The notes beneath the pieces were generated by a model. That model was not told the DNA's origin and did not search any database. It saw only the letters and a list, made by a program, of their open reading frames with translations. A program made the translations under genes and the position numbers. Below are positions 3,844-63,924 of a stretch of DNA of 64,000 nucleotides, piece after piece. Numbering within the stretch: position 1 is the first letter of the stretch; every line of letters starts with the position of its first letter. The DNA comes from Cyanobacteriota bacterium (GTDB lineage Bacteria; Acidobacteriota; Vicinamibacteria; Vicinamibacterales; UBA2999): the NCBI GenBank assembly GCA_019752015.1, contig JAIEMQ010000041.1, positions 4,469-68,468 on the forward strand. Direction: 5' to 3'.

Positions 3844-3932
3844 GACAATCGGGCTACTGGCTGGGGCACGTTACGCCTGCAGCCAGACACTGTCAAGAAG
3901 AAGTCCCGTGCCCCCGATCGATGCAGCTCTCT

Positions 3933-3957
3933 CTAGATCTAGATCTAGATCTAGATC
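3933..3957. repeat. Perfect (CTAGAT)x4 hexamer microsatellite, fully self-complementary
   Basis: The sequence reads ctagatctagatctagatctagatc. It lies between the NHL gene stop (3971) and the kinase start (3843). Confidence 0.95.
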
Positions 3958-10918: not shown

Positions 10919-11572
10919 GTGCTGAACAACGTCGGTGATGTGTTGTCGGTCGTGCTACGGGGCAGCCTGGGCCGTTCGGGACGCAAGCGCGCCCGGCGGG
11001 CCACCAAATTCCTCACCGGTCATCGCGGGTTCCTGAGCACCAGCGCGATCATCGGCGCCGCCGGTGTGGCGTGGGGCATCTACGACACGCTCAAGGCGAA
11101 GAACCAGAGCGCCATCGCCGTACCCGCGGTTCCAGGGGTTCCCACAGTTCCAGGGGTTCCAACGGTGGGTTCGGTTCCACCTATTCCGGCAGCAGTCGAG
11201 GCGGCGCTCGATCCGGTGGCGCGCATCATCCGCCTGGCGGTGTCGGCGGCGAAAGCCGACGGCACGCTGAGCGAGCAGGAGCGCGAGGTGATCATGGCCC
11301 GCGCCAGGGAAGCCGGCCTCGAGTCGATCGTTGCCGCCGAGCTCAACCAGGCGCGTCCGCTTGGCGACATCGTGCGCGGCGTGATCGATCCGGACATGAA
11401 AAAGGAACTCTACGTGCTCGCCTTTACGATCGTGCGGGCGGATGAAAGCGTGTCGGGCGCCGAGCGCATCTACCTCGCGCAGCTCGCACACCAGTTGGGT
11501 CTCGAGCCGGCCGCCGCGCAGGCGCTCGAGCAGGAGACTTCGGCGAAGATCGATTCAGAAACGGAGAACTGA
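10919..11572 (+). CDS. TerB-like / DUF533-family protein
   Basis: 217 aa. GTG start preceded by GGAGGGA. The C-terminal half (RIIRLAVSAAKADGTLSEQEREVIMARAREAGL ... LYVLAFTIVRADESVSGAERIYLAQLAHQLGL) shows the paired-helix TerB/DUF533 pattern. Confidence 0.75.
   Translation: MLNNVGDVLSVVLRGSLGRSGRKRARRATKFLTGHRGFLSTSAIIGAAGVAWGIYDTLKAKNQSAIAVPAVPGVPTVPGVPTVGSVPPIPAAVEAALDPVARIIRLAVSAAKADGTLSEQEREVIMARAREAGLESIVAAELNQARPLGDIVRGVIDPDMKKELYVLAFTIVRADESVSGAERIYLAQLAHQLGLEPAAAQALEQETSAKIDSETEN
11128..11178 (+). repeat. In-frame 9-nt-periodic GGTTCC array inside the TerB-like CDS, encoding a (VPx)n linker
   Basis: GGTTCC or a near-copy occurs at 11128, 11137, 11146 (AGTTCC), 11155, 11164 (degenerate) and 11173. 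The peptide is AVPGVPTVPGVPTVGSVPP. Confidence 0.85.
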
Positions 11573-12625: not shown

Positions 12626-12629
12626 CGGC

Positions 12630-12662
12630 CACAGATTAGACACAGATTGGACGCAGAGGGTT
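12630..12662 (+). repeat. Tandem 11-mer array CACAGATTAGA / CACAGATTGGA / CGCAGAGGGTT filling the stop-to-start spacer
   Basis: Read directly. The upstream stop is at 12623-12625 and the next ORF starts at 12661. Confidence 0.85.
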
Positions 12663-20928: not shown

Positions 20929-22053
20929 ATGTGGAGCTACAGCTTCACGGTGTTCCTGTCGGCGTTTCAGCTGCTGCCGACCGCGCCGTTCTACATCCTC
21001 TCGCTCGGCGGCAGCCACCTCGCGGCCGGACTGTTTCTCGGCTTCCTGACCTACGCATCCGCCATCTCGGCGCCGATCACCGGCGCGATTGCCGATCGCT
21101 TCGGCAAGCGGCGCGTCCTGATCGTGGCGAGCATTGCGATCACCCTCTTCTCGCTGCTCTATGCGATCGCGCCGTCGTACCAGGTGATCCTGGGGCTCGT
21201 GCTCCTCCACGGCGTGTTCTGGTCGGGGCTGCTGTCGAGCTCCAGCTCCTACATGCTTGAGATCATTCCGCCGTCACGCCGGGCTGAAGGCCTGGGATAC
21301 GCAGGGCTCGCCAGCGTCCTCGGCGTGGCGGTGGCGCCGTGGATCGGCTTATGGATGTTCGATCACGGCGGCTGGCGGATGTTGTGTTTCGAAGCGGCGG
21401 CGCTCAACATCGTCATGGCACTGATCGCCTGGCGGCTGACGCCCGACCGCCATCATGCGGATCGCTCGATGCATCCGCGCGACCTGATCGAGTGGCGCAT
21501 CCTGATCGGCGCGGTGATGCTGTTCCTCTATTCCTTCAGCTACGGCGGCATCACCAGCTTCGTCGCGGTGTATGCCGACCAGCTGTCGGTGCCGCGGGCG
21601 CTGTATTTCACCGCCTTTTGCCTGACGATCGTCGTGACCCGCCCGTTCATCGGCCGCTACGCCGATCGCGAGGGTCACGCGCGCGTCATCGTGCCGTGCC
21701 TGTCGATGATCGTGCTCGGCGTCAGCGTGTTGTCGATCGCCGACAGCGGCGCGATGTTCGTGGTGTCCGCGATCCTGTTCGGAACCGGCTTCGGATCCGC
21801 CTATCCGATCTTCGTCGCGCACCTGATGCAGCACGTGCAGGAGCATCGCCGCGGCGCCACGTTCGGCGCGTTGATCGGCGCCTTCGACACCGGCATCGGC
21901 ACCGGCTCGATCGCGGTCGGCTGGCTGAGCCAGCGCTACGGGTTTGGCCGCGCCTTCGGCGTGGCCGGCGGCCTCGCGCTGCTGTCGATTCCGTATTTTC
22001 TCTACCTGGAGAAGCGTCAATGGACTACGTCCGTCTCGGCACGACGGAGCTGA
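20929..22053 (+). CDS. MFS transporter
   Basis: 12-TM-like hydrophobic profile. The D-R-x-G-K-R-like loop ADRFGKRRVL occurs after TM2. The ATG at 20929 is preferred over the TTG at 20869, which overlaps the upstream gene. The start remains uncertain. Confidence 0.8.
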   Translation: MWSYSFTVFLSAFQLLPTAPFYILSLGGSHLAAGLFLGFLTYASAISAPITGAIADRFGKRRVLIVASIAITLFSLLYAIAPSYQVILGLVLLHGVFWSGLLSSSSSYMLEIIPPSRRAEGLGYAGLASVLGVAVAPWIGLWMFDHGGWRMLCFEAAALNIVMALIAWRLTPDRHHADRSMHPRDLIEWRILIGAVMLFLYSFSYGGITSFVAVYADQLSVPRALYFTAFCLTIVVTRPFIGRYADREGHARVIVPCLSMIVLGVSVLSIADSGAMFVVSAILFGTGFGSAYPIFVAHLMQHVQEHRRGATFGALIGAFDTGIGTGSIAVGWLSQRYGFGRAFGVAGGLALLSIPYFLYLEKRQWTTSVSARRS

Positions 22054-22997
22054 CCGTCTCGCGGCTCTGCCTCGGCACCATGACTTACGGCACGCCGGCG
22101 TGGCGGCCGTGGGTGCTCGACGAGGCCGCCAGCCGGCCGTTCATCAAGCGCGCGCTCGAGCACGGCATCAACTTCTTCGACACCGCCAACATGTATTCGC
22201 GCGGCGTCTGCGAAGAAGTCGTCGGCCGCGCGCTGAAGGAGTTCGCGAAGCGCGACGAGGTCGTCGTCGCCACGAAAGTGTTTTATCCGGTCGACGATGC
22301 CGTCACCGGCGGACTGTCTCGCAAGCAGATCATGCTGGCCATCGACGACTCGCTGCGCCGGCTGGGCATGGATTACGTCGATCTGTATCAAATCCATCGC
22401 TTTGACGATCAGACGCCGATCGAAGAGACGTTGGAAGCGCTGCACGACGTCGTGAAGGCAGGAAAGGCCCGCTACATCGGCGCCTCCAGCATGTATGCCT
22501 ATCAGTTTCTGAAGATGGTCTACACCCAACGCGCCCGCGGCTGGACGCAATTTGCGTCGATGCAGAATCACTACAACCTGGTCTATCGGGAAGAGGAACG
22601 CGACGTCATTCCGTTCTGCGTCGAAGAAGGCATCGGCGTCATTCCCTGGAGCCCGCTGGCGCGCGGCTTTCTCGCCGGCAATCGCAAGCGCGGGGAGAAG
22701 AGCGCGTCGCTACGCGATCAACACGACACCTGGGGCCACACGCTGTATACGGCCGACGAGGATTATGACGTCGTCGATCGGGTCGTCGCAGTGGCGAAGC
22801 GCAAAGGCGTGTTGCCGATCCAGGTCGCGCTCGCGTGGATTCTCGCCAAGCCCGGAGTAACGGCGCCGATCATCAGCGCGACAAAGGTCGATCAGCTCGA
22901 TCAACTCGTCGAAGGCCTGTCGGTGAAATTAACGCCGCAAGAAATCGCGGCCGTCGAAGAACCATACGTGCCGCACAAAGTAATCGGCATCGTCTGA
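22020..22997 (+). CDS. Aldo/keto reductase
   Basis: 325 aa from ATG 22020. LGTMTYG, INFFDTANMYSRGVCEEVVG, YVDLYQIHRFD, ARYIGASSMYAYQF and IPWSPLARGFL. Confidence 0.9.
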   Translation: MDYVRLGTTELTVSRLCLGTMTYGTPAWRPWVLDEAASRPFIKRALEHGINFFDTANMYSRGVCEEVVGRALKEFAKRDEVVVATKVFYPVDDAVTGGLSRKQIMLAIDDSLRRLGMDYVDLYQIHRFDDQTPIEETLEALHDVVKAGKARYIGASSMYAYQFLKMVYTQRARGWTQFASMQNHYNLVYREEERDVIPFCVEEGIGVIPWSPLARGFLAGNRKRGEKSASLRDQHDTWGHTLYTADEDYDVVDRVVAVAKRKGVLPIQVALAWILAKPGVTAPIISATKVDQLDQLVEGLSVKLTPQEIAAVEEPYVPHKVIGIV

Positions 22998-22998
22998 A

Positions 22999-23123
22999 GG
23001 TTCCATTGGTTCCAAAGCTTCCAATAGCATTGTTCTGACGAGGTGTCGGGAGTGCTGAGAACAATTGGAACTCCGATAGAACCACGCCTTTGGAACCGCT
23101 GGAACCCGTGGAACCTTGGAACC
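22999..23123. repeat. Foldback element: three tandem 9-mers (GGTTCCATT, GGTTCCAAA, GCTTCCAAT), a central imperfect hairpin, then four inverted 8/9-mers (TTTGGAACC, GCTGGAACC, CGTGGAACC, TTGGAACC)
   Basis: Read directly. It fills the whole gap between the convergent stops at 22997 and 23127. Inner stem ATTGTTCT (23029-36) pairs with AGAACAAT (23058-65), and TTCCA pairs with TGGAA. Confidence 0.85.
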
Positions 23124-23126
23124 CTA

Positions 23127-23789
23127 TTACTTAACGATCGAAATCGACATGCCGTCGATCCGCTTCCCAAGGACGGGAATGATGATCGACTCCAGCCGTG
23201 TCTCCGCGGCGAGCTTCGCGTTGAAGGCGCGGGCCGCGCGGGCATTTTCCTCCTCGGGCGACGTCTGCAGGACGGCACCATCCCTGATCAGATTGTCGGC
23301 AATGATGACCGTTCCCGGCCGCGACAGCCGCAGGCTGAGATCGAGGTAGTTCTCGTAGCCGGGCTTGTCGGCATCGATGAAGACGAGATCGAACGGCGGC
23401 ACGCTCGTCTTGATCAGCCGCTCGAGCGTGTCCTCGGCCGTGCCAACTTCGATCGTGACCCGCGACCCGACGCCGGCGCGATCGACATTCTTCCTCGCCA
23501 CGTCGGCATGTTTGCGATCGAGCTCGAGGCTGATCAGGACGCCGTCCTCCGGCAGCGCTCGCGCCAGCCACGTCGTGCTGTAGCCGCCGAGCGTGCCGAT
23601 CTCGAGGATGCGCTTTGCGCCGCTGATCTTCGTCAGCAGGTAGAGCAGCCGTCCCTGGTTGGGCGACACCTGGATCGCCGGCAGCCCCGCCGCATCGGCG
23701 TCCGCGACATTCTGCGTGAGAACGGGATCGGGCGGGACGAACAGCCCTTCGATGTACTTTTCGATGTGAAGGCGGAGATCAGGATCCAT
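23127..23789 (-). CDS. Class I SAM-dependent O-methyltransferase (caffeoyl-CoA OMT-like)
   Basis: 220 aa. SAM-binding segment ILEIGTLGGYSTTWLA, then FDLVFIDADK, typical of Methyltransf_3. Confidence 0.85.
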   Translation of the reverse strand: MDPDLRLHIEKYIEGLFVPPDPVLTQNVADADAAGLPAIQVSPNQGRLLYLLTKISGAKRILEIGTLGGYSTTWLARALPEDGVLISLELDRKHADVARKNVDRAGVGSRVTIEVGTAEDTLERLIKTSVPPFDLVFIDADKPGYENYLDLSLRLSRPGTVIIADNLIRDGAVLQTSPEEENARAARAFNAKLAAETRLESIIIPVLGKRIDGMSISIVK

Positions 23790-34318: not shown

Positions 34319-34320
34319 AT

Positions 34321-34355
34321 CAGGGATCAGGGATCAGGGATCAGGGGTCAGGGGT
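34321..34355 (+). repeat. Tandem heptamer array (CAGGGAT)x3 (CAGGGGT)x2 occupying the entire stop-to-start spacer
   Basis: Read directly. Upstream TAA at 34316-18 and downstream ATG at 34360. Confidence 0.95.
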
Positions 34356-34359
34356 CACG

Positions 34360-42668: not shown

Positions 42669-46453
<3,785 letters not shown>

Positions 46454-46454
<1 letters not shown>

Positions 46455-47464: not shown

Positions 47465-47488
47465 ATCTACTAATGTAGATTAGTAGAT
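47465..47488. promoter_or_regulatory. Perfect 10-4-10 palindrome ATCTACTAAT-gtag-ATTAGTAGAT; candidate operator of the SahR-like regulator
   Basis: It starts 1 nt upstream of the regulator start codon (47464), in the 158-bp divergent gap. It is AT-rich in a GC-rich context. Confidence 0.55.
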
Positions 47489-51770: not shown

Positions 51771-51965
51771 GGTCCGGCTAAAGCCGGACCCTCACAAGAA
51801 TCATGTGAGGGTCCGCCTTTTGGGCGAACCGACTTCCCAATAATCATGTGAGGGTCCGCCTTTAGGCGAAACGACTTCTCAATAATCATGTGAGGGTCCG
51901 CCTTTAGGCGAACCGACTTCTCAATAATCATGTGAGGGTCCGCCTTTAGGCGGACCAATCTGTGT
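51771..51965. repeat. REP-like hairpin in inverted orientation, followed by about four tandem 42-43-bp units each carrying TGTGAGGGTCCGCC
   Basis: GGTCCGGCTAAAGCCGGACCCTCACA is at 51771-51796. TGTGAGG starts at 51804, 51847, 51889 and 51931. Only the last unit keeps an intact stem (GGTCCGCC-TTTA-GGCGGACC). Confidence 0.9.
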
Positions 51966-51979
51966 AGAATCATCCCGCT

Positions 51980-54199: not shown

Positions 54200-54201
54200 A
54201 T

Positions 54202-54241
54202 CTGTTGACCTATTGATCTATTGATCTATTGATCTGTTGAT
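54202..54241 (+). repeat. Tandem octamer array CTGTTGAC (CTATTGAT)x3 CTGTTGAT occupying the entire stop-to-start spacer
   Basis: Read directly. Upstream TGA at 54197-99 and downstream ATG at 54243. Confidence 0.95.
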
Positions 54242-54242
54242 C

Positions 54243-55324: not shown

Positions 55325-56020
55325 ATGACTCAGCGGGCGCTAAAATGGGATGACCGTCGGTTCGAGTTTGAGTCTTACCTGCGATCTTCCAATCTGAAGC
55401 CAGCGTATAAGAGTTCGCTTGGCGCTTTGTTCGCCATGAACTGCATGAAGGTATTGCCGCATATCCGCGATGAAGTGGTCGATTGTGTCTTTGCCGATCC
55501 GCCGTTCAATCTTGGCAAGGAGTACGGCAAGAATTCGAATGATGCAGTACCTGACGGCGAGTACGTTCGTTGGTGTAAATCATGGCTAGATGAGTGTGTT
55601 CGGGTCCTCAGACCTGGCGGCTCAATCTTCGTTTACAACCTGCCCAAGTGGAACGTCATATTAGGGGCACATTTGACAGTGCAGGGGATGGCATTCAGAC
55701 ACTGGATTGCCGTGGAGATTAGTTCTTCGTTGCCAATTTCCGGACGCCTTCATCCGAGCCACTATGGTTTGCTGTATTACACGAAAGGCAAGCCAAGAAC
55801 CTTCCATCGAATTCGTACGCCGATCCTAACGTGCAGGCACTGTGGCGGCGAGTTGAAAGACTATGGTGGTCATCGTGGCGCCATGAATCCTAAAGGTGTC
55901 ACCTTGAAGGACGTCTGGACAGACATTCCACCCGTAAGACACTGGAAGTTCAAATCGAAGAGTCGTCGCGCGAATGCTCTGTCGATTAACCCCCGCTTGA
56001 TGGGTGCAACGCCGTGTTGA
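55325..56020 (+). pseudogene. C-terminally truncated beta-class DNA amino-methyltransferase (DPPF motif) on a low-GC island
   Basis: 231-aa ORF. Motif IV VFADPPFNLGKEY lies near the N-terminus. CRHCGG zinc-ribbon-like segment. The ORF ends after ..RRANALSI.. without the C-terminal AdoMet-binding FxGxG motif expected for this circular permutation. No continuation is seen in any frame. Confidence 0.65.
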
Positions 56021-59309: not shown

Positions 59310-59507
59310 GTGGCGATGGCAACCCAGGTTCCGGCGATCAAGGTCTTGCTGCTGCCGAAAGACAACGCGCTCGGCACCATCTTCGGCGGCGCCATCCCCT
59401 CGCACATCGACCTGGCGTCGGCGGTCGAAGCGCGCAAGGTGACGGAGGCGGAAGTGGTGCTCGTCGCCGTCGGGCCTGACGAAGCGCCGGTACCAATTCG
59501 TCCTTAG
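59310..59507 (+). pseudogene. Possible 5' fragment of a hotdog-fold acyl-CoA thioesterase (YciA-like)
   Basis: 65-aa ORF. LLLPKDNALGTIFGGAIPSHIDLASAVEARK resembles the N-terminal half of YciA-type thioesterases (P.D.N..G.iFGG.i....D.A). The frame ends in a TAG that is also the first bases of the tandem octamer array. Confidence 0.4.
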
Positions 59508-59537
59508 GCACCCAGGCACCGAGGCACCCAGGCACCT
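59506..59537 (+). repeat. Tandem octamer array (AGGCACCN)x4 ending 2 nt before the thrB ATG
   Basis: AGGCACCC, AGGCACCG, AGGCACCC, AGGCACCT, read directly. ATG at 59540. Confidence 0.95.
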
Positions 59538-59539
59538 GA

Positions 59540-60475
59540 ATGATTGCAGTCTTCGCTCCCGGATCGGTTTCTAACGTCGCGTGCGGCTTCGACATCATGG
59601 GGTTTGCACTCGAAGAACCCGGCGATGTGGTGGTTGCGGCGCCTCAGGACGATCCCGGTGTGTCGATTGCCGCGATCCACGGCGACGACGGCCGGTTGAC
59701 GACGGATCCGCTGAAGAACACCGCGTCGGCGGCGGTGCTCGCGCTGCTCGAGCGGCTCGAGACGACTCGCGGGGTCGCGTTGACGATTCACAAGGGCCTG
59801 CCGCTCGCGAGCGGCATCGGCAGCAGCGGCGCCAGCGCCGTCGCCGCGGTGGTGGCCGCCAACGAGCTGCTCGGCCGGCCGGCGCCGATGTCCATGCTGC
59901 TCGAGTGCGCGATGGCTGGAGAGTTTGCGGGCTGCGGCTCCGTCCATCCCGACAACGTCACGCCGTCGTTACATGGCGGCTTCATCCTCGCCCGCAGCGC
60001 GCAGCCGCCCGACATTGTCCGCCTGCCCGTGCCCGAAGGCCTGGCGTGCGCGGTTTTGCACCCGAAGATGGAAGTGGAGACCGGCGCCGCGCGGACGCTG
60101 CTCGGCAATCAGGTGGCGCTGAAGGATGCGACCAGGCAGTGGGCCAACGTCGGCGGCCTCGTCGCGGCGCTCTACACCTCTGATCTCGGGCTGCTGTCGC
60201 GATCGCTGGTCGACTCGATCGCGGAACCGAAGCGCGCCTCGCTCGTGCCCGGATTCTTCGACGTGAAGTCCGCCGCGATCGCCGCCGGCGCACTCGGCGC
60301 GAGCTTGTCCGGCTCCGGTCCGTCGATCTTCGCGCTCGCGCCATCACTCGAGATCGCCCGCGCCGCGGGTGACGCAATGCGAACCGCCTTCGCGCGCGCG
60401 AGCAACGTCGGCGCCGATCTCTGGGTGTGCCCTGTAGGTCGCAGCGGCGCGCGTGTCATAAGCAGCCACAGATGA
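59540..60475 (+). CDS. thrB: Homoserine kinase
   Basis: 311 aa. GHMP kinase motif GLPLASGIGSSGASAVAAVVA. N-terminal APGSVSNVACGFD. Adjacent to thrC. Confidence 0.9.
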   Translation: MIAVFAPGSVSNVACGFDIMGFALEEPGDVVVAAPQDDPGVSIAAIHGDDGRLTTDPLKNTASAAVLALLERLETTRGVALTIHKGLPLASGIGSSGASAVAAVVAANELLGRPAPMSMLLECAMAGEFAGCGSVHPDNVTPSLHGGFILARSAQPPDIVRLPVPEGLACAVLHPKMEVETGAARTLLGNQVALKDATRQWANVGGLVAALYTSDLGLLSRSLVDSIAEPKRASLVPGFFDVKSAAIAAGALGASLSGSGPSIFALAPSLEIARAAGDAMRTAFARASNVGADLWVCPVGRSGARVISSHR

Positions 60476-60693
60476 CACAGATTTCACAGATTAGAGCTCG
60501 CCCCGCGGCGCCGGTCGAAGACCGGCGCGCGCGTCGAACCGCCGACGATCGAAAATCAAGAGAGCATTCGTGACCCGGCGGGCTCTCTTGATTTCGATCG
60601 TCGGCGGTTCGACCGGCGGCCTTCGGCCGCCCGCGGGGCGAGCGCATTTGGTGAGCGCGCCGTCTTTAATCTGTGTAATCTGTGTAATCTGTG
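60467..60693. repeat. 227-bp foldback element between thrB and thrC, with terminal inverted arrays of three 9-mers (CACAGATGA, CACAGATTT, CACAGATTA ... TAATCTGTG x3)
   Basis: Inner arms pair as follows. GAGCTCGCCCCGCGG (60494-508) pairs with CCGCGGGGCGAGC (60631-43). TCGAACCGCCGACGATCGAAAATCAAGAGAGC (60535-65) pairs with GGCTCTCTTGATTTCGATCGTCGGCGGTTCGA (60581-612). Each arm also carries a local hairpin (60509-28 and 60612-30). The thrB stop codon lies inside the first 9-mer. Confidence 0.9.
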
Positions 60694-60701
60694 GATCCCA
60701 A

Positions 60702-61997
60702 ATGATCTGCGTCAGCACGCGCGGGAAGGCGCCGGCGGTTTCACTCAAGGACGCCGTCCTCGCCGGGCTCGCGCCCGATGGCGGACTCTACGTGCCGCAG
60801 ACGATTCCACGAAAGCCAGCGTCGTGGTGGTCGGCGCTGCGCGGCAAGTCGTTTCACGACATCGCCATCGCGATCGCGCTCGAGCTGGCCGGCGATGAAT
60901 TCGATCACGCCACGATCACCAATCTCGTCCGCGAAGCGATCAACTTCCCGGTCCGCATCGTCGAGCTGGAAAAAGGCCTCGCTGTGCTCGAGTTGTTTCA
61001 CGGCCCGACGTTCGCCTTCAAGGATTTTGGCGCGCGTACGCTAGCCCGCCTGCTTGCCCTGAGCGAGCGTGGCGCCGCTGCCAGCGGCGGCACGCGAGTC
61101 GAAGGGATCACGATCCTCGTGGCGACGTCGGGCGATACGGGCAGCGCGGTCGCGAACGCGTTTTTCGGCGTCGACGGCACGCGCGTCGTCGTGTTGTATC
61201 CGGAGGGTAAGGTCAGCGACGTCCAGGAAGCGCAGTTCACCACGCTCGGCGGCAACGTGGCCGCCGTTGCAGTCGCCGGAACATTCGATGACTGCCAGCG
61301 TCTCGCGAAGGAAGCCTTCGCCGATCCAGCGCTGCAATCGCGCGTGAAGCTGACGTCCGCGAACTCGATCAGCCTCGGCCGGCTGCTGCCGCAAATGTTC
61401 TATTACGCGTACGCGTCGCTGCAGTCCTCCGCGGACCGGCAGTTGACGATTTCAGTCCCGTCGGGCAACTTCGGCAATCTCGTCGCCGGCGTGATGGCGT
61501 GGAAGATGGGCGCCGAGATTCAATGCTTCCGCGCCCCGACTACCATCAACGACACGGTGCCACGCTACTTCGAGTCCGGCCGCGTCGAGCCAAGGCCGTC
61601 GATGCAGACCCTTGCAAATGCGATGGACGTCGGCAATCCGAGCAACCTCGAGCGGCTGCAGTGGCTGTTCGGCGGCGATCTGGCGGCCATGAAAGCCGTG
61701 ATCACGACAATGCCGTTCAACGATGACGATGTGCGCAGGGCGATCGCGACGCTGTTCGAGAAATACGGATACGTGGCCGATCCGCACACCGCGATCGGTT
61801 ATCTCGGCGTGCCGCAGAAGCGGACCGGTTTGACGTTGTTCCTGGCCACCGCACACCCTGCAAAGTTTCGAGAAGTCGTGCAGCCCGTGATCAAAAGGGA
61901 CGTCCCGCTGCCTGATGCGTTGGCCGAAACGATTGCACGCAAGAAACACGTGCAACGCATCAGCCCGCGGCTTGCTGAGCTATCGAAGTTGTTATGA
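60702..61997 (+). CDS. thrC: Threonine synthase
   Basis: 431 aa from ATG 60702. GGLYVPQ. PLP-lysine motif FHGPTFAFKDFG. TSGDTGSAV. The upstream extension of ORF 60570.. reads through the foldback and is rejected. Confidence 0.92.
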   Translation: MICVSTRGKAPAVSLKDAVLAGLAPDGGLYVPQTIPRKPASWWSALRGKSFHDIAIAIALELAGDEFDHATITNLVREAINFPVRIVELEKGLAVLELFHGPTFAFKDFGARTLARLLALSERGAAASGGTRVEGITILVATSGDTGSAVANAFFGVDGTRVVVLYPEGKVSDVQEAQFTTLGGNVAAVAVAGTFDDCQRLAKEAFADPALQSRVKLTSANSISLGRLLPQMFYYAYASLQSSADRQLTISVPSGNFGNLVAGVMAWKMGAEIQCFRAPTTINDTVPRYFESGRVEPRPSMQTLANAMDVGNPSNLERLQWLFGGDLAAMKAVITTMPFNDDDVRRAIATLFEKYGYVADPHTAIGYLGVPQKRTGLTLFLATAHPAKFREVVQPVIKRDVPLPDALAETIARKKHVQRISPRLAELSKLL

Positions 61998-63843: not shown

Positions 63844-63924
63844 GGTCCGCCTAGAGGCGGACCCTCACAGGATTGAGCGCGGGCCCCCAACGGATTATTG
63901 TGAGGGTCCGGCTTTAGCCGGACC
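63844..63924. repeat. REPIN-like doublet: GGTCCGCC-TAGA-GGCGGACCCTCACA, a 29-nt spacer, then TGTGAGGGTCCGGC-TTTA-GCCGGACC
   Basis: Two copies of the hairpin family seen at 51771-51965, in inverted orientation. The stems differ by a compensated pair (CC/GG versus GC/GC). Confidence 0.85.

Follow-up and report, generated by a model that had tools for sequence, protein, structure and literature searches.

Inverted arms of tandem nonamers around a hairpin core between two convergent genes, and the short-unit array population of the Vicinamibacterales lineage

Tandem arrays of short units, heptamers foremost, have been known for decades in cyanobacteria, Xanthomonas, Burkholderia, and Beggiatoa, and to our knowledge neither their origin nor their function has ever been explained. 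The short tandemly repeated repetitive (STRR) heptamers of cyanobacteria were reportedly described by Mazel in 1990. Two further classes of small repeats are relevant here. The repetitive extragenic palindromic sequences and bacterial interspersed mosaic elements (REP/BIME) of enterobacteria are built on a conserved palindrome of about 35 nt, occur in hundreds of copies, and are linked to the REP-associated tyrosine transposase (RAYT); the other class comprises miniature transposable elements with inverted repeats (MITEs) and the Rickettsia palindromic elements, which insert in frame in genes. Here we describe an element that fills the space between an aldo/keto reductase gene and an O-methyltransferase gene in a 64-kb stretch of contig JAIEMQ010000041.1 (assembly GCA_019752015.1, order Vicinamibacterales), which was analysed as a whole and is called the window below. 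We interpret it, with a probability of roughly 0.55, as a foldback simple-sequence repeat, that is, a convergent pair of short-unit arrays around a unique hairpin core, driven by slippage and counted among the arrays of 7-9-nt units that are widespread in the lineage.

The described arrays differ in unit, position, and proposed role. In Xanthomonas, GGGAATC arrays are paired convergently in 70-75 cases per genome (Rehm et al. 2015, PMC4692102), and the same paper gives a preference for four units in the GGGNATC-type heptamer repeats of Xanthomonas and Nostoc. Heptanucleotide repeats are the most abundant class of long simple sequence repeats (LSSRs, units of 5-11 nt) in many large bacterial genomes (Mrazek 2007, quoted in PMC4679880). 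In Beggiatoaceae, arrays of 2-6 TAACTGA heptamers end a few bases before start codons (MacGregor 2015, PMC4679880), and in Nostoc, heptamer repeats near start codons affect the expression of a reporter (bioRxiv 10.1101/2022.06.06.494920). Finally, the tandem repeats of Borg elements arise independently, both between genes and in frame, and make disordered linkers in proteins (PMC9879509).

The gap between the two stop codons of our locus measures 129 nt (22998-23126) and is occupied by the element in its entirety. The aldo/keto reductase gene on its left (22023-22997, + strand; PF00248, E 7e-77) ends with TGA at 22995-22997; the O-methyltransferase gene on its right (23127-23789, - strand; PF01596, E 4e-44) is convergent to it, and its stop codon reads TTA on the + strand (23127-23129). 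The left arm (22999-23025), delimited by the sequence and by inverted-repeat pairs I1-I3, is made of the three tandem nonamers GGTTCCATT, GGTTCCAAA, and GCTTCCAAT, the unit being a GGTTCC core plus N3 (two to three bases). The right arm (23089-23123) carries four inverted units, TTTGGAACC, GCTGGAACC, CGTGGAACC, and TTGGAACC, at spacings of 9, 9, and 8 nt. Between the arms lies a unique core of 63 nt (23026-23088) with an 8-bp hairpin, in which ATTGTTCT (23029-23036) pairs with AGAACAAT (23058-23065) across a loop of 21 nt, and with two degenerate inward units, TGGAACTCC and GATAGAACC. An earlier note on this DNA had taken the whole gap for one structured element, and the sequence, the arms, and the folding all bear this out, as does the exact reverse complementarity of TTTGGAACC to GGTTCCAAA that it had pointed out. 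Its scheme of three units, a central hairpin, and four inverted units is correct overall, but the third left unit has one mismatch in the core and the last spacing on the right is one of 8 nt.

Folded on each strand, a check that the note had proposed, the element is stable on + and - alike, at about -52 to -56 kcal/mol: the + strand reaches a minimum free energy of -54.8 kcal/mol and the - strand one of -56.1 kcal/mol (z -4.6 and -4.8), and 0 of 200 shuffles folded as stably. The predicted fold consists of interrupted arms of 40 nt and a branched core of about 60 nt. By the inverted-repeat search the arms are 78-89% complementary and stand 41-70 nt apart; at 40 nt and 78% complementarity, no inverted repeat of the window confined to 150 nt is longer. 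The junction is identical base for base in two independent Logan assemblies and thus is not an assembly artefact. The element is real and hairpin-forming, and is more than a product of chance. A scan of the window with Rfam gave no match at the gathering threshold, the only candidate identity for the element, the plant microRNA family MIR477 (21.6 bits against a gathering threshold of 65, E 0.028), being noise; a tRNA scan found no tRNA genes.

The history of the junction was followed in a set of 173 loci comprising 2.08 Mb of related sequence, whose members are cited here by L numbers. In 0 of 80 genome loci did the methyltransferase lie beside a reductase homolog, and the comparison was drawn from methyltransferase relatives (L149 and L170-L173). 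Two of them, both with a methyltransferase 89% identical to that of the window, carry the element. L173 has a full ortholog of 145 nt, built of 4 + 4 units, whose two strands fold at -81.9 and -83.0 kcal/mol, whereas the window has three units in its left arm, so the number of units changes by a whole unit. In L170, the arm on the methyltransferase side is a homogenised, regular (GGGTTCCAG)n array, and the contig ends inside the element. At 84% identity the junction of L171 is fully syntenic with a gap of 21 nt devoid of repeats, and in L172 a gap of 5 nt is followed by a different gene; in L149, where both genes are 75% identical, the stop codons abut with a gap of 0 nt. Since the site is filled in the relatives at 89% and measures 0-21 nt in those at 84% and below, the gain falls within a narrow clade, and the element was acquired after the split from the 84% relatives and before the split from the 89% relatives. 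A junction conserved without repeats, which would have spoken against a discrete element, is indeed found in the distant relatives, but the 89% relatives carry the element. Similarly, the uniqueness that the note had considered applies to the core, which is unique in all the sequence available, but not to the units and the architecture, which are common throughout the genome and the lineage. Pairing is retained between the two full orthologs: of the 38 pairs common to the window and L173, none is broken, while both partners differ in one pair and a single partner in seven.

The same architecture had been claimed to recur at 60467-60693 and 43324-43396. Both foldbacks are real and even stronger than the first, but the one at 43324-43396 lies in frame within metH and is not intergenic. 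The foldback at 60467-60693 begins with 3 x CACAGATNN (60467-60493) and ends with 3 x TAATCTGTG (60667-60693) around a core of three hairpins, and folds at -170.4 kcal/mol (z -16.7). It is situated between the co-directional thrB and thrC genes, with the thrB stop codon inside its first unit; the start codon of thrC is probably the ATG at 60702, because the Thr_synth_N domain begins only at residue 48 of the long open reading frame (ORF).

The metH gene (42669-46454) is a 1261-aa ORF for the cobalamin-dependent methionine synthase, with all five Pfam domains intact. Its foldback of 74 nt (43323-43396) has arms of 4 x CCGGGAG and 4 x CCGGTTC on the + strand, which read (GGGAACC)3 GGGAGCC and (GGCTCCC)4 on the metH sense strand, and the segment 43324-43396 folds at -75.8 kcal/mol (z -8.4). 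A foldback at the same site is seen in relatives of 82-90% identity, where it folds at -39 to -73 kcal/mol, and each arm holds four units in five genomes. The left arm is (GGGAACC)4 or a close variant in all five genomes read, whereas for the right arm the window and L166 have (GGCTCCC)4, L163 and L164 (GGATCCC)4, and L167 (GACTCCC)4; thus a variant spreads along an entire array, and perfect complementarity between the two arms is not required. The site may be long, short (EPGRPK), or absent in relatives, and in a neighbor-joining tree of metH the long form is scattered over a star-like crown, a pattern that either gain or loss may have produced. The same gene contains a second array of this heptamer at 45430-45460, likewise in frame, which reads (GGCTCCC)3 GGTTCCC in the sense direction and lies in the linker between the homocysteine and folate domains. 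This linker site has a different translated array in almost every relative, and the linker peptide GIRDQGSGIGDQGSG corresponds to (GGGATCA)n read in three frames; the series CCCGGCT, CCCGGAT, and CAGGGAT suggests change in place by single steps.

These foldbacks belong to a dense population of arrays. The window holds 6 arrays with units of 7-8 nt, against 0.17 per composition-matched shuffle, and 4 with units of 9 nt, against 0.03. The closest relatives of several proteins of the window come from Acidobacteriota, mostly labelled Vicinamibacterales, and the density of arrays with 7-8-nt units per 100 kb is 18.2 in Vicinamibacterales-like sequence (230 kb), 7.1 in other Acidobacteriota, 5.9 in Chloroflexota, and 0.6 in loci of Proteobacteria and Actinobacteria. 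Heptamers are the modal class (44 of 97 arrays), and 25 of 46 heptamer arrays fall in one single-linkage family, GGGNNCN, which includes GGGATCA, GGGAACC, GGGAGCC, and GGGCTCA. Inverted pairs of arrays were found at no fewer than nine, that is, at least nine, non-homologous loci in 439 kb of Acidobacteriota sequence, each with a unit of its own (GGGGCTT, AATAACA, GGGATCA, CACCAAGA, GGCTAGCG, GTGCGGCGG, CACAGAT, CCGGGAG, and GGTTCC-N3); in one of them, in L167, (GGGATCA)12 faces (TGATCCC)9.6 at a distance of 7 bases and the pair folds at -153 kcal/mol. Additional inverted pairs were seen by hand in L022, L011, and L016. No pair of the same orientation flanking unique DNA was found in these 439 kb, each apparent case being merely an interrupted array; convergent pairing is the rule, not an accident. 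In 6 of 6 G-rich foldbacks (L163, L166, L167, L169, metH), it is the 5' arm that is rich in G, whichever strand is read. Arrays of heptamers and octamers are likewise frequent in the Chloroflexota loci L020, L031, L045, and L067, with an inverted pair GGAGATT / CAATCTC in L031, so the phenomenon is not confined to Acidobacteriota. A limited search of the literature, which is no proof of absence, yielded no description of arrays of this kind in Acidobacteria.

At least eight different units are present in the window, and no single one dominates. Several unpaired arrays fill the spacers of operons: ATCAGGG x 5.6 (34319-34357, + strand) occupies the 41-nt spacer between a PQQ-dehydrogenase gene and a ThuA gene from stop to start codon, ATCT[AG]TTG x 5.4 (54200-54242, + strand) the spacer between penicillin amidase and DUF3224 genes, AGGCACC[CG] x 3.9 (59506-59536, + strand) lies directly upstream of the thrB start codon, and CACAGATTRGA x 2.5 (12630-12657, + strand) sits in an operon spacer of 35 nt (12626-12660) and shares its core unit with the arms of the second foldback. 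At 34319-34357, 54200-54242, 59506-59536, and 12626-12660, the whole spacer is taken up; the arrays start at the upstream stop codon or within it and stop 0-5 nt short of the next start codon, and thus occupy the position where the ribosome-binding site is expected. The number of units varies at such sites, the array of the PQQ-ThuA spacer counting 5.6 units in the window, 9.4 in L166, 2.9 in L168, and 0 in L169. The self-complementary array TCTAGA x 4.3 (3932-3957), in a 127-nt spacer between two genes of the - strand, holds XbaI, BglII, and GATC sites. Finally, a GGTTCCNNN nonamer array (11128-11161, + strand) inside a DUF533 gene (10919-11572) encodes a (VPG/VPT)n linker with the A/T-ending codons GTT and CCA, in a genome with about 85% G+C at third codon positions. 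All relatives have the (VPG)n linker, which is old and varies among them only in copy number; the repeat therefore seems to be maintained at the DNA level, and a recent spread of the GGTTCC array into this gene is ruled out.

A foldback simple-sequence repeat at the reductase-methyltransferase junction would behave as follows. Its arms may lengthen, shorten, and homogenise through replication slippage or unequal exchange, while selection on the hairpin, or else intrastrand template switching that copies one arm onto the other, would preserve their self-complementarity. Transcription of either convergent gene would give an mRNA whose 3' end is a long imperfect hairpin without a U-tract, and such a hairpin could block 3' exonucleases or serve as a pause site or an insulator, in the manner of REP hairpins. 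The most plausible effect would be this 3' hairpin on both convergent transcripts, not U-tract-dependent termination, and the element would not be a dedicated intrinsic terminator; it may be largely neutral or selfish DNA in space that selection leaves free.

Several observations weigh against slippage as the full account. The core of about 60 nt is unique sequence with no counterpart in the 21-nt empty site, and, being beyond the reach of slippage, it implies that at least a seed came from somewhere. A look-alike at L163:8926-8990 and the ORF-bracketing inverted arrays of L166 hint at mobility. The covariation rests on two full orthologs, in which a single double-sided change is weak evidence. 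Moreover, three independent assemblies of this strain are identical at the element, so the turnover of units is not fast.

In comparison with the described systems, the locus shows at least three head-to-tail units, a pair on opposite strands, many arrays above chance, and variable copy number, all of which characterize short-unit arrays, but lacks the one dominant unit per genome seen in Xanthomonas and Beggiatoa. The arrays resemble the GGGNATC repeats in being head-to-tail, with units of about 7 nt, mostly intergenic, variable in copy number, and often paired convergently into an inverted repeat; the ATCAGGG and GGGGATC arrays of the window match the GGGNATC type, and four units are favoured in both. 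In contrast to that type, many families with units of 7, 8, and 9 nt are present instead of one, the phylum is Acidobacteriota, in this genome GGTTCC-N3 is not prone to form G-quadruplexes, the arms stand on either side of a unique hairpin core, and arrays also occur in frame in proteins. With LSSRs and STRR sequences they share the predominance of heptamers, an enrichment where free-living bacteria have large genomes, and slippage as the presumed driver; however, the descriptions of those repeats concern direct arrays, and inverted pairing and an in-frame foldback are not among them. The unpaired arrays of the window fill operon spacers up to the start codon as TAACTGA does, whereas TAACTGA is one dominant heptamer with one inverted case reported, and the element described here is placed at 3' ends, not 5' ends. 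Borg repeats differ in being direct only, with longer units, and in belonging to archaeal extrachromosomal elements. Thus the kind is known in other phyla; what is new here are the many unit families, the unique cores, the in-frame foldback, and the ORF-bearing cassettes.

By analogy, REP/BIME sequences are what the element most plausibly works like: they too are intergenic hairpins at 3' ends and inside operons, with mRNA stabilisation as the likely effect. In contrast to them, no conserved sequence is common to the different foldbacks, and no RAYT (TnpA-REP) gene was seen among the subset of window ORFs that was scanned. The likeness to MITEs and Rickettsia palindromic elements consists in the foldback shape, the presence or absence between relatives, and the in-frame copy in the essential metH; terminal inverted repeats are present, though as tandem units, which differ from locus to locus, and neither a conserved multi-copy sequence nor a target duplication was visible in the sequence compared.

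The latter likeness leads to an alternative that we regard as unlikely, namely, that the element is a mobile or selfish foldback, MITE-like or similar to the intervening sequences of 23S rRNA, in which a pre-formed hairpin cassette with array termini was inserted between the stop codons. Its presence and absence are clean, its boundaries run from stop to stop, the unique core cannot arise by slippage, and the metH foldback is in frame and patchy on the gene tree. In addition, an unrelated divergent promoter region (L163:8926-8990) has a GGTTCC nonamer array and then GGTTCTGACG..TGTC, matching the left arm and the start of the core, which in the window reads GTTCTGACG..TGTC. By itself GTTCTGACG occurs at chance frequency (16 times in 2.08 Mb), but its position beside one of the very few GGTTCC arrays is, from the sequences compared, unlikely to be fortuitous. 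The array at L163:8926-8990, which belongs to another genome of the lineage, is followed by GGTTCTGACGTGTC.

On the other hand, a second full copy of the core is absent from the window, from the 173 loci (2.08 Mb), and from viral contigs: blastn-short with the three foldbacks against the window and all loci returned only themselves and their orthologs, and a pattern scan of the viral contigs for an array plus core gave nothing. A multi-copy mobile element is not demonstrable in the sequence searched, in which the core is single and the arms differ at every locus. Since each foldback has different arm units, a sequence-specific transposase does not fit, and no transposase turned up in the scanned subset of window ORFs. 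Comparison of the filled with the empty sites, which differ as far as the stop codon on each side, showed no visible target-site duplication. At metH site A, the array changes in situ, by steps of a single base.

If the element was mobile, the short versions would be non-autonomous relatives of cassettes bearing a small ORF. Such cassettes exist in L166, where two small ORFs of the PF05635 family (bAvd-like, the intervening-sequence protein of 23S rRNA) are each flanked by a pair of inverted 8- or 9-mer arrays (L166:4553-5176 and L166:8204-8969), the arrays being GGCTAGCG x 5 versus CGCTAGCC x 8, and GTGCGGCGG x at least 9 versus CCGCCGCAC x 12. The uninterrupted, empty counterpart of the L166:8204-8969 site is the segment 47465-47622 of the window. 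PMC4990558 describes the Coxiella intervening sequence, with an ORF of the same family, as a selfish element, and 23S rRNA intervening sequences with PF05635-family ORFs are called selfish there. Neither the other loci nor the window yielded further PF05635 cassettes, which leaves two cases, both from one genome, as the basis of the association. A more specific form of this idea, which we hold to be doubtful, is that Vicinamibacterales may host selfish foldbacks defined by structure, with termini made of arrays of arbitrary units. Their autonomous form would carry a PF05635 ORF, as in the L166 cassettes, and their ORF-less forms would be those at 22998-23126, 60467-60693, and in metH, inserted by an unknown hairpin-dependent mechanism and subsequently grown by slippage.

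Similarly doubtful is the possibility that in this phylum the long hairpin serves without a U-tract as a bidirectional terminator or collision insulator. The element is placed exactly between convergent stop codons, its hairpin is stable on both strands, as in Rho-independent bidirectional terminators, and the pairing is kept in the L173 ortholog. Furthermore, in other Acidobacteriota (L022, L011, L016) foldbacks of a similar kind come after homologs of the reductase, and canonical terminator-like sites are at chance in the window (12 versus 12.8 expected, 22 versus 15.1), so the organism may use other signals. However, there is no T-run on either side and no A run either (flanks TCTGAA / CCTATTACTT), which is equally true of the flanks in L173, and a terminator scan did not call the element, which has no compact G+C-rich stem with a 3-8-nt loop. 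The earlier note had tentatively proposed a bidirectional terminator while remarking that the arms are not those of simple terminators. The remark is right, given the 40-nt interrupted arms, far longer and more interrupted than terminator stems, and the branched core. The proposal itself fails for a canonical terminator on the lack of a U-tract and of a scan call, on the absence of a counterpart in relatives, where the same junction measures 0-21 nt, and on the fact that an intact metH and the interval between thrB and thrC both tolerate this architecture. Efficient termination there would be harmful, and the architecture is thus compatible with read-through.

The weakest alternative, an array of protein-binding sites or a G-quadruplex-forming element acting on DNA or RNA, is highly improbable: such roles were proposed for TAACTGA repeats, Nostoc heptamers, and GGGNATC repeats, the G-tract family GGGNNCN is the largest holder of heptamer arrays counted above, the four-unit arms of metH echo the four-unit preference that PMC4692102 gives for G-quadruplex repeats, the L170 arm has four G3+ tracts, and unpaired arrays abut start codons as TAACTGA does (PMC4679880), but the window element has no G3 tract on one strand and just two on the other, the units of other foldbacks (CACAGAT, AATAACA, GGCTAGCG) are unrelated, and no candidate binding protein was identified. 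G-quadruplex formation as a common denominator fits the GGGNNCN family, not the window element or several others.

Some other features of the window were noted. A CRISPR array at 1-1272, with 18 perfect repeats of 36 nt (GTTGTTCCGCTGAGAAATCAGCGGCCCCATTGAAGC) and spacers of 34-41 nt, runs off the start of the window, and the gene next to it encodes a response regulator, not a cas protein. A repeat unit of about 42 nt, REP-like and with GGTCCGCCTTTAGGCGGACC and CTCACA..TGTGAGG as its two hairpins, is present in 4-5 tandem copies at 51771-51979 and again at 63844-63924, downstream of the last gene; the orthologous spacer of L167 carries the (GGGATCA)12 / (TGATCCC)9.6 foldback instead. The segment 54519-56242, which lacks ORFs of high GC3 (G+C content at third codon positions) and includes an N6/N4 DNA methylase gene (55325-56020, PF01555), may be a foreign island. 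The palindrome ATCTACTAATGTAGATTAGTAGAT (47465-47488), situated upstream of metH and the ArsR-methyltransferase gene in their divergent region, is conserved in L166, has a near copy in L163, and is probably an operator.

The arrays have practical consequences. They break short-read assemblies, as at the L170 contig end, and in annotation they can be mistaken for terminators or CRISPR-like repeats. They also create hypervariable linkers in proteins. The lineage studied here is informative for short-unit arrays in general, since it combines coexisting unit families, frequent convergent pairs, filled and empty orthologous sites, and homogenisation within arrays with a foldback kept in frame in an essential enzyme and cassettes that bracket a small ORF. 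The rival ideas of slippage with template switching, of a mobile element, and of an RNA hairpin function are therefore directly testable in this lineage.

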